64,000 nucleotides of DNA from Escherichia coli. GTDB lineage: Bacteria > Pseudomonadota > Gammaproteobacteria > Enterobacterales > Enterobacteriaceae. The first letter of the stretch is position 1; each line of letters opens with the position of its first letter. The stretch is taken from assembly GCF_013315695.1 (NCBI RefSeq), contig NZ_CP054353.1; one strand, written 5' to 3'. The notes below the pieces were generated by a model that made no database searches, was not told the DNA's origin, and worked only from the letters and a program-made list of their open reading frames with translations. The translations under genes were made by a program, and so were the position numbers. Shown one piece after another: positions 22,899 through 28,147 of this stretch.

Positions 22899-22930
22899 TT
22901 CATCGCTATCCATTCAATGGATATTTTGTT

Positions 22931-22957
22931 AGCCCGATAATTTTTACGTATCGGGCT
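22931..22957. terminator. Hairpin between convergent rlmB and the IclR-family gene (candidate bidirectional terminator)
   Basis: AGCCCGATA-ATTTTTACG-TATCGGGCT, 9-bp stem with T-rich loop. Confidence 0.4.
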
Positions 22958-22974
22958 TCGAATGGAAAATACCC

Positions 22975-23775
22975 TTAATGGTGGGAATCAATACCGATAT
23001 TGATATCCTGTAAGGTGTTGAGTTCCTGTTCAATACGCGAACGTGCATTCAGCAGGATACGCGTGACATCGGCAATTTTTTCTTTTGTCGCACGAAATAC
23101 GGGTATTGAAATGCTGATGGCGGCAAGCGTTTTATTTCGCTGTTTTAAGGCAACAGCATAACATACCGTCTCCTCATTGATTTCCCTGTTATCAAATGCA
23201 TACCCATTTACTCTGGCATCCTCAAGTTGTTGGCGCAATTGTTCCAGGGTCGTAACGCTATACGATGTCATGGGAACAAAACCGTCAGGGTAGAGTTGCT
23301 GAATTTGTTGATCACTGTATTCACAGATAATGGCTTTTCCCAGCGCAGAATAGATAGCAGGCAGACGAGTCCCAATATGTGAAACCAGTTGTACGGTTTG
23401 TGCCGCCTGCACCTTATTGATATATAAAACATCTGCACCGTCCAGGATCCCCATCTGACAAACCTCATTGCACTCTTTGACAATGTTGTTCATCTCTTTG
23501 TAAACCATTTTTAACCAGTACGATCTGTCGAGGAAAGCACGGGACAGAATCGAGCAGGAGATCCCCAGATTATAAAGCTGGGTATTAGCGTCATAACTGA
23601 TGTACCGCTGTTCAACCAGCGTTTTGAGGATGGGAAAAATCGTTCCTTTCAGGATGCCTGTTTTTTCCGAAAGGTGAGTTAATGAAACACCCTGATTCTC
23701 CGCTGCCAGTGCTTCCAGTATCTCTAACACCCGGATGGTAGGCTTATGTTCCATAATGACTATTTCCCTTACCAT
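22975..23775 (-). CDS. IclR-family transcriptional regulator (accessory island)
   Basis: ORF 22975..23775, 266 aa (alternative ATG at 23754); N-terminal winged HTH (LEILEALAAENQGVSLTHLSEKTGILKGT) and C-terminal IclR effector domain; AT-rich coding sequence. Confidence 0.8.
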   Translation of the reverse strand: MVREIVIMEHKPTIRVLEILEALAAENQGVSLTHLSEKTGILKGTIFPILKTLVEQRYISYDANTQLYNLGISCSILSRAFLDRSYWLKMVYKEMNNIVKECNEVCQMGILDGADVLYINKVQAAQTVQLVSHIGTRLPAIYSALGKAIICEYSDQQIQQLYPDGFVPMTSYSVTTLEQLRQQLEDARVNGYAFDNREINEETVCYAVALKQRNKTLAAISISIPVFRATKEKIADVTRILLNARSRIEQELNTLQDINIGIDSHH

Positions 23776-23989
23776 GAGTAATGCACCATTCTAGGGAGAA
23801 TTATAATTCAAGTAAATAAACCCCCTCGCGTTCCTTGACTGCTGTTGACCCCATCAGTCCTTTTTTAGCGTGATACTGGTCATAAAACGGATAAAAAAAG
23901 AACTGTGATTGTTTTTTATGCAGGCCTCTGGCGTAATTACTCCAAATCTATCAATAACTTATGTGTATCACTTCTGTGATTGGCTAAAT

Positions 23990-24051
23990 TTGACTTATTT
24001 CTGAGGTTGGGTATACTCATTTTAGTTTGTATTTAAAAACGTTGTTTGTAT
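23990..24051 (+). promoter_or_regulatory. Candidate sigma70 promoter (TTGACT, 16 nt, TATACT) with two GTTTGTAT direct repeats just downstream (possible operator)
   Basis: TTGACT 23990-23995, TATACT 24012-24017; GTTTGTAT at 24025-24032 and 24044-24051; lies upstream of the aldolase-like gene and divergent from the IclR gene. Confidence 0.35.
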
Positions 24052-25026: not shown

Positions 25027-26328
25027 ATGGCTAATATAACCCAATACGATAATCCGCTGTTGAATTCCGCAATTCAAAAATCGTGGAAACGTTTAGTACC
25101 CTTAATGTTCATAATGTATTTTGTTGCCTTTATTGATCGGGTAAATGTTGGCTTTGCCAAAGATGCAATGAAACTGGATATTGGATTATCAGAGTCGGCA
25201 TTCGCTCTCGGTGCAGGAATATTTTTCGCTGCCTATGCACTTTTCGGCATTCCAGCTAACCTGATCCTCAATAAAATCGGCGCACAAAAGTGGTTAAGTA
25301 TTACAACTGCAATTTGGGGCCTTCTCTCGGCAATGATGGGATTTGTCACCGGTGAAACGCAATTTATTATTTTGCGCTTTCTGTTAGGGCTGGGCGAGGC
25401 GGGGTTCTATCCCGGAATTTTACTGCTCGCATCCATTTATTTTCCTAACAAGGTTCGCGGATCGGTCGTGGGAATATTTGTGTTGGGGGTGCCGCTGGCG
25501 TTAACGCTCGGTTCGCCAATATCGGGAGCTTTACTTGAACTACATGGCTGGATGGGACGTCCAGGATGGTTCTGGATGTTTGTCATTGAGGGATTGCCGG
25601 CATTAGTGCTTGGTATCTTTACCTGGTTCTACCTTGATGATAATCCGACGAAAGCGCGATTTCTTACCCAGGAAGAAAAAGACGCTTTGAATAAGCAACT
25701 GGAATCTGAACGACAGAAAACAGAAACCAGTTCAGTGATTTCAGCATTGAAAAATGCCAAAGTTTGGCATCTGGCATTAATCTACGGCACCATCCAGATA
25801 TCAGTATATGGTTTAATGTTTTTCCTTCCGTCACAGGTTGCATCGCTGATGGGAGAAAGCCTTGGCTTTAAGCAGTCATTAGTCGCGGCAATACCATGGG
25901 CGTGCTCTGCTTGTGGCGTCTATTACATTCCGCGAATTGCTGACCGCAATCCTTCCCGGCGTGTGGCCATTTCGGTTATGTGTATGTTGGCTGCTGCTGT
26001 CGGCCTTGCCCTTTCCGCATTTGCGGGGCCTGTTGTGGCGATTGGTGCACTTTGTTTAAGTGCGGTTGGTTTCCTCTCAGTACAGCCAATATTCTGGACT
26101 TTCCCTCCACAACTTCTTACTGGTCCGGCACTGGCTGCGGGGATCGGTTTTTGCACCACGATGGGCGCTTTCTGCTCGTTCCTTGCTCCTCTTATCCGTG
26201 TTGAGGTTGATCGGGCAATGGATAGCAGCATCGCCGGATTGATGGCGTTGTCTGTAATTACTATCGGCTGCGCATTATTGATTGGATTGCTGCAAAAGAG
26301 CCAACAGGCAGCAAAAGCATACAGTTAA
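25027..26328 (+). CDS. MFS transporter, anion:cation symporter-like (putative sugar-acid permease)
   Basis: ORF 25027..26328, 433 aa, about 12 predicted TM helices, FIDRVNVGFA motif near TM1. Confidence 0.8.
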   Translation: MANITQYDNPLLNSAIQKSWKRLVPLMFIMYFVAFIDRVNVGFAKDAMKLDIGLSESAFALGAGIFFAAYALFGIPANLILNKIGAQKWLSITTAIWGLLSAMMGFVTGETQFIILRFLLGLGEAGFYPGILLLASIYFPNKVRGSVVGIFVLGVPLALTLGSPISGALLELHGWMGRPGWFWMFVIEGLPALVLGIFTWFYLDDNPTKARFLTQEEKDALNKQLESERQKTETSSVISALKNAKVWHLALIYGTIQISVYGLMFFLPSQVASLMGESLGFKQSLVAAIPWACSACGVYYIPRIADRNPSRRVAISVMCMLAAAVGLALSAFAGPVVAIGALCLSAVGFLSVQPIFWTFPPQLLTGPALAAGIGFCTTMGAFCSFLAPLIRVEVDRAMDSSIAGLMALSVITIGCALLIGLLQKSQQAAKAYS

Positions 26329-26355
26329 TAAGATTGAACATCTGACTGGAAGAAT

Positions 26356-27957
26356 ATGATTATGCAAAAAATATTACGTATCGACAGTAACGATAATCTC
26401 ATTGTCGCGTTGAAAGACCTGCACGCTGGAGAATCGTACTCGTGGGATGACGACAACATAACGTTAGTAACTGATGTTAAGGCTAAACATAAGTTTGCGA
26501 CGCAAGATATTCCTCTGGATGGCATTGTTTCGATGTACGGTACGCCAGTTGGCAAGGCCACGCGTCCCATCGTTAAGGGAGAAGCGATTACCGTTGATAA
26601 TATTCGCCACTATGCAGCTCCTGTCACACTGGAGGATGTTGAACCCTACCACTGGCAGGCACCGGATGTCTCTGAATGGAGCACCCGCACTTTTAAAGGT
26701 TATGTCCGTGACGATGGCAGAGTGGGTACTGCCAGTTACTGGTTAGTCTTTCCATTGGTATTTTGCGAGAACCGTAATGTCAGTAAGTTAACCAATGCTT
26801 TGAATGATGCTTTGGGTTATACCAATAACTCACTGAAAAAGTTTGCTCTTAATCTGACGTCCGGTAGCGATGAACTGATCGAAACCGCGAGAATGTTCCC
26901 GCATATTGAAGGTGTTCGCTGTATTACGGTCACCAGTGGTTGTGGTGGTGCAACTTCAGACTGTGAAACTATGTGCGATGTATTAGCTGCTTATGCTGAC
27001 CATCCGAATGTAATCGGTATGACGGTATTCAGTTTAGGATGTGAAAAAGCGCAGCAGAAAATGTTTAAGGATGCGCTGGCGAGACGTAATCCTGAATTTG
27101 ATAAACCTGCGCTCTACTTTCTCCAACAGGAGTGGGACAGCGAAGAGCGGATGATGCAGACCGCTTTACAGCAGACTTTCGAGGCAATGAAAGCGGTGAA
27201 GCCGACAGAAAGAGTAGAGGTCCCTCTTTCCTGTCTCAAAGTGGGGATGAAGTGTGGTGGTTCCGATGGTTTTTCTGGTATCTCCGGCAACCCTGCAATG
27301 GGGCTGGTTTCTGACTGGTTGACAACGCTTGGTGGCGCTTCCGGGTTAGCAGAATTTCCAGAATTATGTGGGGCAGAAGGTGATATGGTTAAGCGTTGTA
27401 TTAATCTTGAGGATAAAAAAAAGTTCCTCAATCTAATGCAAGGCTACGAAAAGACAGCGAACTTTTTCGATACCACCATTGCGGATAACCCAAGTTTTGG
27501 CAACATCGCGGATGGGTTGATTACTGACGCAATAAAATCTACCGGAGCAGCGAAAAAAGGCGGGCGAGCGCCAATTGTGAGTGTATGCGATTACGCTGAA
27601 CCGATGCCCGATAGTGGATTATCGTTGGTGTGTACTCCGGGCAATGACGTGGACGCGGTAACCGGATTGGTAGCAGCAGGATGTAATGTGGTTATCTTCT
27701 CGACGGGTCTTGGTACGCCCACCGGTAACCCGATTGTTCCGGTGTTAAAAATATCCACCAACAGCACGATTGCCAGACGATTGTCTGACATGATTGATTT
27801 CGACTGTGGCCCAGTGATTGACGGCACTCCGCTGGAAGATGTGAGTAGAGAATTATTTGAAAAAGTTATTGAAACTGCCAGTAAGGACTACGTCGTGAAG
27901 GCAGACAAACTTGAACAGTTTGACTTTATGTTGTGGAAGCGGTCGTTAGACTTGTAG
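26356..27957 (+). CDS. UxaA/GarD-family sugar-acid dehydratase (altronate/galactarate dehydratase-like)
   Basis: ORF 26356..27957, 533 aa (alternative ATG 26362); N-terminal SAF-like domain and C-terminal Cys-rich dehydratase domain (TVTSGCGGATSDCE, CGGSDGFSG). Confidence 0.78.
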   Translation: MIMQKILRIDSNDNLIVALKDLHAGESYSWDDDNITLVTDVKAKHKFATQDIPLDGIVSMYGTPVGKATRPIVKGEAITVDNIRHYAAPVTLEDVEPYHWQAPDVSEWSTRTFKGYVRDDGRVGTASYWLVFPLVFCENRNVSKLTNALNDALGYTNNSLKKFALNLTSGSDELIETARMFPHIEGVRCITVTSGCGGATSDCETMCDVLAAYADHPNVIGMTVFSLGCEKAQQKMFKDALARRNPEFDKPALYFLQQEWDSEERMMQTALQQTFEAMKAVKPTERVEVPLSCLKVGMKCGGSDGFSGISGNPAMGLVSDWLTTLGGASGLAEFPELCGAEGDMVKRCINLEDKKKFLNLMQGYEKTANFFDTTIADNPSFGNIADGLITDAIKSTGAAKKGGRAPIVSVCDYAEPMPDSGLSLVCTPGNDVDAVTGLVAAGCNVVIFSTGLGTPTGNPIVPVLKISTNSTIARRLSDMIDFDCGPVIDGTPLEDVSRELFEKVIETASKDYVVKADKLEQFDFMLWKRSLDL

Positions 27958-28040
27958 TGACTAATCATTAGCGTCAGCGTATGTAGACTGGCGCATTTTT
28001 TATCGTATGCATAGCGTTAAATTTTTGGTTCTTCTAAATA

Positions 28041-28067
28041 GCCATCCAGATTTGGATGGTTTTTTTT
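28041..28067 (+). terminator. Intrinsic terminator after the dehydratase gene
   Basis: Perfect hairpin CCATCCAGATTTGGATGG followed by a 9-T run. Confidence 0.75.
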
Positions 28068-28147
28068 TGTCTATAGCTGGTAAGATAATTACGTACTGCA
28101 AATATTCATTTTATTAATATTTAAACTTAATTTATATGGAATAATAT

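Follow-up and report, generated by a model that had tools for sequence, protein, structure and literature searches.

A four-gene cassette located between rlmB and yjfI in a 64,000-nucleotide stretch of an Escherichia coli genome (RefSeq contig NZ_CP054353.1), hereafter called the window, is proposed to be an operon which imports L-fuconate (6-deoxy-L-galactonate), removes water from it and splits the resulting keto acid into pyruvate and L-lactaldehyde under the control of an IclR-family protein, a proposal to which we give a chance close to, and slightly short of, even. The phylogeny of the cassette dehydratase, the gene context of its relatives in other genomes and the residue at its position 231 together point to L-fuconate as the first candidate substrate, to D-arabinonate as the second, and away from D-altronate and the aldarates.

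Four intact genes are found between rlmB (22167-22898) and yjfI (from 28148), both in the list of open reading frames (ORFs) and in the RefSeq annotation. The ORF calls were checked against the RefSeq annotation of EcPF7, a urinary isolate identical to the window, in which the product names of the cassette genes are given at family level only. The three genes on the plus strand are closely packed, with gaps of 50 and 33 nucleotides. The insert and its genes are located in the window as follows:

22898..28039, strand not applicable: accessory insert, delimited by comparison with a K-12-type locus, G+C 0.44, present in 512/5,426 genomes
22975..23754, minus strand: IclR-family regulator, 259 amino acids from the RefSeq start, divergent from the operon
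24083..24976, plus strand: DHDPS/NAL-family class I aldolase, 297 amino acids, predicted 2-keto-3-deoxy-sugar-acid aldolase
25027..26328, plus strand: MFS permease, anion:cation symporter (SLC17/DgoT-like), 433 amino acids, predicted sugar-acid:H+ symporter
26362..27957, plus strand: UxaA/GarD-superfamily dehydratase, 531 amino acids from the RefSeq start, predicted L-fuconate dehydratase

Dehydratase and the gene context of its relatives

The dehydratase, whose residues are numbered here from an upstream ATG at 26356, contains the Pfam domains SAF, GD_AH_second and GD_AH_C (E values of 2e-10, 6e-31 and 3e-83, respectively) over residues 13-529. The cysteines C137, C196, C229 and C300 are invariant in an alignment of 20 sequences and align with cysteines of the K-12 UxaA, and the cysteine motifs agree with the mutagenesis primers P29-P32 of a study in which C134, C173, C208 and C276 of C785_RS13685 were proposed as iron ligands (PMC6336799). 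Substrates of the UxaA/GarD superfamily are (2S,3R) sugar acids, namely D-altronate, galactarate, D-idonate, D-arabinonate, L-fuconate and L-galactonate (PMC6336799, PMC10079672). The best full-length solved relative of the cassette enzyme is GarD, and its sole NCBIfam match is the GarD equivalog TIGR03248, at 221.2 bits with a cut-off of 730.85 bits. Among the known enzymes considered as its identity, GarD was rejected on this score, which lies far under the cut-off, and canonical UxaA (EC 4.2.1.7) on its 33 % amino acid identity with the K-12 protein, its separate clade and the presence of K, not N, at position 231. The sulfolactate sulfo-lyase SuyAB, also rejected, is heteromeric and lacks the four cysteine residues.

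The relationships of the dehydratase were examined in a neighbour-joining tree of 66 sequences with 200 bootstrap replicates, the comparators of which include mostly Bacteroidota UxaA loci among the matches listed from a scan of genome contigs. The cassette dehydratases form a clade with 100 % support, nested in a clade with 98.5 % support whose other members of known gene context are the enzyme of Orbus and those of L-fucose clusters on contigs L008, L096, L097 and L098. The sister group of the 98.5 % clade consists of dehydratases of Betaproteobacteria linked to uxaC and uxaB (100 % support). The E. coli enzyme is 61-63 % identical to those of L008, L096 and L097, 57 % identical to that of L098, and 56-58 % identical to the relatives in the betaproteobacterial uxaC-uxaA-uxaB clusters, whose gene context marks them as true altronate dehydratases.

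The fucose clusters were recognised by NCBIfam equivalogs in L008, L096 and L097, where L-fucose dehydrogenase was matched with 389-408 bits (cut-off 300) and FucP with 289-329 bits (cut-off 280). A mutarotase is encoded in L096 and L097, a FucO-like protein in L096 and a DHDPS-family aldolase in L008 and L096. The cluster of L098 is partial, comprising a fragment of a short-chain dehydrogenase/reductase, a mutarotase and a FucP-like MFS protein with 36 % identity to the K-12 FucP, and was identified by Pfam and BLAST only.

A scan for alignment columns linked to gene context returned a single column, that of K231, which lies two residues past the metal-ligand Cys229. Among the matches listed, this residue is N in 24/24 loci with uxaC and uxaB or with uxaB, as it is in K-12 UxaA, and in the loci with uxaC only (n = 14) it is N in 11 and H in 3, which makes N in 35/38 of the uxaC/uxaB contexts. 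At every locus with a fucose dehydrogenase gene it is K or H, and it is K in all the cassette enzymes and in 75/75 database proteins of the clade. GarD also has K, and the D-arabinonate dehydratase has T, as seen in primer P31 (PMC6336799). Position 231, which tracks genomic context across phyla, is thus a candidate specificity determinant for members of the UxaA/GarD superfamily, and the cassette enzyme is predicted to be an L-fuconate dehydratase.

The aldolase-permease-dehydratase trio is kept at 52-87 % identity in Morganella (aldolase 71 %, permease 87 %, dehydratase 82 %), Klebsiella (66, 80 and 70 %, respectively), Commensalibacter, Telmatospirillum and the JGI metagenome contig L093, and the IclR gene is mostly present with it. 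In the gene contexts of the cassette loci, neither the E. coli cassette nor its orthologues include a dehydrogenase, a lactonase, a mutarotase or FucP. The permease is of the acid type and these enzymes are missing, so the acid itself would be the compound taken up.

An operon of Orbus hercynius (L094, 6595-12744) combines features of the cassette and of the fucose clusters, having genes in the order IclR-permease-dehydratase-DHDPS-FucO. Its permease and dehydratase are 70 and 63 % identical, respectively, to the E. coli cassette proteins, and its aldolase is of the same lineage as those encoded in the fucose clusters of L008 and L096. The product of the final gene passes the cut-off of the lactaldehyde-reductase equivalog (704 bits against 537) and has 71 % identity to the K-12 FucO. 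This hybrid operon shows that, in a single pathway design, the aldolase has been replaced by a non-orthologous one.

Permease and aldolase

The permease contains the Pfam domain MFS_1, and its top NCBIfam match is TIGR00893, the 'D-galactonate transporter' subfamily, at 257.8 bits with a cut-off of 395. Its closest solved relative is DgoT, the D-galactonate:H+ symporter, in which D46 and E133 function in proton coupling and R47 in carboxylate binding (PMC11649914, PMC10149257). The equivalent residues of the cassette protein, D37, R38 and E124, align with D46, R47 and E133 of DgoT and are invariant among the cassette permeases in an alignment of seven sequences. Since they are kept, the permease is predicted to be a proton-coupled carboxylate importer.

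Lone relatives of the permease are found on the metagenome contigs L121 (9992-11305) and L125 (9914-11311). That of L121 lies downstream of genes for a 3-hydroxyacyl-CoA dehydrogenase, a thiolase, an aminolevulinate-synthase-like protein and an enoyl-CoA hydratase, and the ORF pattern of L125 matches that of L121. These neighbours, with functions in CoA metabolism, are uninformative on the substrate.

The aldolase belongs to the Pfam family DHDPS (PF00701, E = 9e-60) and has the motif GSTGE at residues 42-46, Y132 in the motif YNFP and the Schiff-base lysine K161, the last two of which align with the corresponding residues of YagE. YagE is the closest solved relative (E = 5e-48), yet the identity is 31 %; the cassette aldolase would therefore represent a lineage distinct from YagE/YjhH, the specificity of which may be similar. 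Orthologues in the other cassettes share 52-71 % identity with it. DapA, NanA and KdgD were rejected as its identity, all scores being below the NCBIfam cut-offs (165.5/206.15, 149.8/281 and 85.4/373.95 bits, respectively). GudL, the clade signature of which is a methionine (M110) in place of the catalytic-site tyrosine together with K194, was likewise rejected; when residues were mapped by motif, the tyrosines of the PYY motif, Y105 and Y106, were found to be retained and the signature methionine to be missing.

Proposed pathway and alternative substrates

The following scheme is inferred in all its biochemical activities, in the substrate and inducer assigned and in the sense of regulation. 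The DgoT-like permease would bring in the sugar acid with protons, and the UxaA/GarD-type dehydratase would remove water across C2-C3 to give 2-keto-3-deoxy-L-fuconate. The aldolase would form a Schiff base via Lys161 and release pyruvate and L-lactaldehyde, and the lactaldehyde could then be oxidised by AldA or reduced by FucO, both core enzymes of E. coli. The IclR-family protein, bound to paired palindromes with the consensus GTTYGTATATAYGAAC downstream of the promoter, would repress the operon until released by the substrate or by the 2-keto-3-deoxy intermediate. The original prediction had anticipated a two-step non-phosphorylative route for a sugar acid following the logic of yagEF and yjhHG with a UxaA/GarD-type dehydratase in place, and the protein families and catalytic residues fit such a route. 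Campylobacter jejuni builds up much L-fuconate during fucose metabolism, which provides a plausible environmental source of the compound (PMC6946681).

The alternative which deserves most attention, although we consider it unlikely, is that the same mechanism acts on D-arabinonate, 2-keto-3-deoxy-D-pentonate being cleaved to pyruvate and glycolaldehyde as YagE and YjhH do after the dehydration of xylonate. FucO reduces glycolaldehyde as well, and the Orbus operon would be compatible with this substrate. D-Arabinonate and L-fuconate are identical in C2-C4 configuration, and YagE itself cleaves 2-keto-3-deoxy-D-pentonate, but the cassette aldolase is just 31 % identical to YagE, and the gene neighbours of the related dehydratases in the fucose clusters match NCBIfam equivalogs specific to L-fucose, including FucP. 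D-Arabinonate is the best substrate of the sole kinetically characterised member of the superfamily other than UxaA and GarD, an enzyme of another subfamily, however, in which the context-linked residue is T instead of K (PMC6336799). The fucose locus of C. jejuni supports growth on D-arabinose too, and characterised fucose pathways of this type also handle D-arabinose (PMC6946681). Less probable again is a hexonate from that stereochemical series, D-altronate or L-galactonate, which would be converted via 2-keto-3-deoxy-gluconate or the L-galactonate analogue to pyruvate and glyceraldehyde without phosphorylation. Such a substrate would suit the 56-58 % identity with enzymes of uxaC-uxaA-uxaB-exuT-kdgK clusters and the low-level promiscuity of the superfamily towards D-altronate, L-galactonate, L-fuconate and D-arabinonate. 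Bootstrap support of 98.5-100 % nevertheless separates the cassette clade and the uxaC-linked one, position 231 is K and not N, and none of uxaC, uxaB and kdgK is linked to any cassette locus examined. E. coli is, moreover, already equipped with UxaA, KdgK and Eda for altronate and with LgoT-LgoD for L-galactonate, and the linkage to FucO in Orbus suits lactaldehyde more than glyceraldehyde.

An aldarate route, starting from galactarate, glucarate or another aldarate, would combine a GarD-like dehydratase with either a DapA-like 5-keto-4-deoxyglucarate aldolase resembling GudL or a dehydratase/decarboxylase resembling KdgD, and appears very improbable. The galactarate dehydratase family gives the only NCBIfam match of the dehydratase, GarD shares K at position 231 with it, GarP and GudP belong to the same family as the permease, and GudL was recently demonstrated to be a DapA-like 5-keto-4-deoxyglucarate aldolase (PMC11775122). 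The scores argue otherwise, at 221 bits for GarD with a cut-off of 731 and 85 bits for KdgD with a cut-off of 374, as do the missing signature Met of GudL (by motif, with PYY105-106 kept), the lack of linked garR and garK in the cassettes examined, and the fucose clusters that are the phylogenetic neighbours of the dehydratase.

Several points also weigh against L-fuconate as the substrate. Its shared C2-C4 configuration with D-arabinonate makes the two inseparable here. The assignment of the dehydratase clade and of the aldolase lineage to L-fuconate is drawn entirely from gene context and phylogeny, and the tree is distance-based (neighbour-joining), not maximum likelihood. Bacteroidota dehydratases of the same subfamily swap repeatedly between uxaC and fucose contexts, so that dehydratase specificity is either labile in evolution or broad. 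The aldolase of the cassette, 28-34 % identical to those of the fucose clusters, belongs to a different DHDPS lineage, and the fuconolactonase matches in these clusters, at 349-353 bits, are below the curated cut-off of 400. Permease relatives with 70-73 % identity are found without the dehydratase or the aldolase, and the promoter and the operator are predictions made only from the DNA sequence.

Regulatory region and edges of the insert

The features outside the coding sequences are located as follows:

23990..24017, plus strand: sigma-70-like promoter of the operon, TTGACT, 16 nucleotides, TATACT, consensus match only
24025..24059, plus strand: candidate IclR operator of two 16-bp palindromes, just downstream of the -10 hexamer
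22907..22962, strand not applicable: pair of neighbouring hairpins flanked by the stop codons of rlmB and the regulator gene, no clear U-tract
27971..28001, plus strand: weak hairpin and T6 behind the stop codon of the dehydratase gene, possible terminator of the operon
28040..28070, plus strand: native rlmB intrinsic terminator, 9-bp stem and T9, in flanking core DNA outside the insert

The regulator has both IclR domains, HTH_IclR (PF09339) and IclR_C (PF01614), and is predicted to be a repressor. Its NCBIfam matches (BhcR, KdgR, PcaR and IclR) are all sub-threshold, no equivalog cut-off being reached. Next to their cassettes, Morganella, Klebsiella, Telmatospirillum and L093 have orthologues of it that share 45-72 % identity.

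The putative promoter agrees with the consensus at 10/12 positions, the best match in the region, and lies 66 nucleotides upstream of the aldolase ATG. The palindromes, identified by direct-repeat detection, are GTTTGTATTTAAAAAC and GTTTGTATATATGAAC, and their position right after the promoter fits repression by an IclR protein. In Morganella an identical palindrome closely precedes the aldolase gene, as it also does in Klebsiella, in L093, where there are two copies, and, in a variant form, in Telmatospirillum. It is present at each of these loci with the orthologous IclR gene and is missing in Commensalibacter, which has no IclR gene, and in Orbus, the IclR gene of which is unrelated. The paired palindromes are therefore predicted to be the operator of the cassette IclR protein. 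No convincing match to a CRP site was seen by eye in the regulatory region, for which no scan was run.

Terminator hairpins had been expected at both edges of the block. The left edge does have a significant double hairpin, with folding energies of -20.6 and -22.1 kcal/mol (z = -2.9 and -3.2 against shuffled sequences), but it lacks a U-tract and was not listed by the terminator scan; it could serve as a bidirectional transcript end or as a stabiliser. The expectation was borne out less well at the right edge, where the hairpin (-11.4 kcal/mol, z = -0.6) cannot be told from shuffled sequence and was skipped by the scan, its loop being longer than 8 nucleotides. Nor is the strong terminator on that side (28040-28061) the cassette's own: it is the pre-existing terminator of rlmB, the top result of the terminator scan (z = -3.9), which is identical in K-12-type genomes, where it directly follows rlmB, and is now found downstream of the cassette.

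Locus and distribution in E. coli

The interval first noted, 22899-28147, coincides exactly with the spacer that separates the stop codon of rlmB and the start codon of yjfI. Alignment with the K-12-type locus L002 placed the true insert at 22898-28039, 5,142 bp which replace 19 bp separating the stop codon of rlmB from its terminator. The G+C content is 0.44 in the insert, 0.537 in the left flank and 0.488 in the right flank. The insert has no mobility genes or flanking repeats, and the cassette would be a self-contained, horizontally acquired operon.

Using at least 80 % query coverage as the criterion for presence, the insert was found at the rlmB-yjfI site, with at least 99 % identity, in 512 of the 5,426 complete E. 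coli genomes, NCTC86 and UMNK88 among them. Every E. coli copy is in this single position, with rlmB and yjfJ alongside, and K-12 is without the cassette. The segment is thus accessory, strain-variable DNA in about 9 % of E. coli. It was also seen in human-gut metagenome contigs in a scan with a permease alignment, which mostly recovered the same cassette again.

The original prediction of a low-GC, strain-variable block absent from K-12, with four ORFs belonging to the IclR, DapA-type aldolase, MFS and UxaA/GarD families, agrees with the base composition, the Pfam assignments and the genome comparison. It had further been suggested that the locus was not an already characterised one, and the literature searches gave no paper on the locus and none on any L-fuconate transporter. 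One paper on E. coli SCB34 names a strain-specific 'altronate hydrolase' and gives no further analysis.

In strains CX15, 0H15 and AW1.7 the cassette contains an IS2 element, which presumably inactivates it. A human-gut metagenome contig of approximately 1.9x coverage, L124, encodes a regulator 100 % identical to that of the window, together with an aldolase of 64 % and a dehydratase of 84 % identity; these mixed identities probably reflect a low-coverage assembly error and not a true mosaic.

Comparison with known systems

The chemistry and the protein families of the cassette are already known, and the novelty lies in a pared-down, acid-scavenging form that brings a permease of its own, a separate lineage of aldolase and a predicted IclR operator which is conserved. 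The fuc locus of C. jejuni (cj0480c-cj0484, encoding FucR, a DapA-like protein, UxaA' and an MFS protein) has the same four-gene set and layout with a divergent IclR-type repressor, and the same predicted chemistry, in which L-fuconate is converted via 2-keto-3-deoxy-L-fuconate to pyruvate and lactaldehyde (PMC12566272, PMC6946681). It, too, lies in a strain-variable region. The dehydratase of C. jejuni, however, is split into Cj0482 (88 amino acids) and Cj0483 (389 amino acids) (PMC9100392), whereas that of the E. coli cassette is a fused protein of 531 amino acids from another subfamily. As compared by the described gene sets, the resemblance is therefore probably one of design rather than of orthology. 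Genes for FucP, fucose dehydrogenase, lactonase, mutarotase and aldehyde dehydrogenase are additional in C. jejuni, which starts from the sugar, whereas the E. coli cassette, with none of them, would start from the acid.

A route-I non-phosphorylative L-fucose cluster was reportedly described by Watanabe in 2020 in Veillonella ratti. The route-I clusters of L008, L096 and L097 have dehydratases from the same well-supported clade as that of the cassette (61-63 % identity), those of L008 and L096 use a DHDPS-family aldolase for the last step, and FucO is linked in some. In these clusters L-fucose enters via FucP and is oxidised intracellularly, whereas the cassette is without such genes. Their aldolases are of another DHDPS lineage (28-34 % identity to that of the cassette) and they are without a DgoT-like permease, Orbus with its DgoT-like permease being an intermediate form.

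The K-12 modules yagEF-xynR and yjhHG-yjhI are likewise accessory or prophage-borne and combine an IclR-type repressor with a sugar-acid dehydratase and a DHDPS-family aldolase, which releases pyruvate and a small aldehyde, as predicted for the cassette. The regulator of the xylonate module senses the 2-keto-3-deoxy intermediate (PMC13279387). The K-12 xylonate dehydratase, however, is of the IlvD/Edd type and that of the cassette of the UxaA/GarD type, the transporter families differ, and the identities are as low as 31 % for the aldolase (with YagE) and 27 % for the regulator (with XynR). The likeness to these modules noted earlier thus concerns their logic and not their kinship, and the systems are analogues.

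With UxaA, which acts on D-altronate in the hexuronate pathway, the cassette dehydratase has in common the superfamily, the three-domain architecture, the four cysteines and the C2-C4 configuration of the predicted substrate; UxaA differs in its sequence (33 % identity), in N at the K231 site, in its link to uxaC and uxaB and in being followed by KdgK and Eda instead of the direct aldol cleavage predicted here. The gar/gud pathway, including GudL, likewise concerns oxidised sugars of the gut and joins a UxaA/GarD-family dehydratase to an aldolase that releases pyruvate and a permease of the anion:cation-symporter type. The cassette differs from it in scores below the GarD and KdgD cut-offs, in lacking the signature residue of GudL and in having no linked garR or garK.

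Possible significance

Mucus-derived fucose is a key currency in the gut, and galactarate and glucarate are oxidised sugars which fuel blooms of Enterobacteriaceae in inflammation. If the proposed function is correct, L-fuconate, like galactarate and glucarate, would offer about 9 % of E. coli an 'oxidised sugar' niche that had gone unrecognised. It would also represent a new cross-feeding link, for example with fucose-oxidising Campylobacter, the oxidation being carried out by other microbes or by host inflammatory chemistry. That the cassette is the first dedicated system for L-fuconate uptake and catabolism, with the first L-fuconate transporter, and that it supports cross-feeding on oxidised fucose in some E. 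coli, Morganella, Providencia, Klebsiella and insect-gut Orbaceae, is a broader claim which we hold more tentatively than the substrate assignment. A function would at the same time be assigned to four 'family protein' genes kept across several orders of Proteobacteria. The operon would further provide a compact three-gene path from a sugar acid to pyruvate and lactaldehyde, from which propanediol can be made, and its IclR protein and operator are a candidate ligand-responsive pair for use in biosensors.

Neighbouring genes

In the window yjfI (28148-28549) is a pseudogene, in which codon 40 is TAA (28265-28267), compared with CAA in K-12-type genomes, and RefSeq also marks yjfI with an internal stop. 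In Morganella morganii (L003, 1-3559) the cassette lies approximately 1 kb from a set of defence genes resembling a cyclic-oligonucleotide-based antiphage signalling system (CBASS), which encodes a DncV-like nucleotidyltransferase, a ThiF/E1-like protein, a JAB protein and a SAVED effector.

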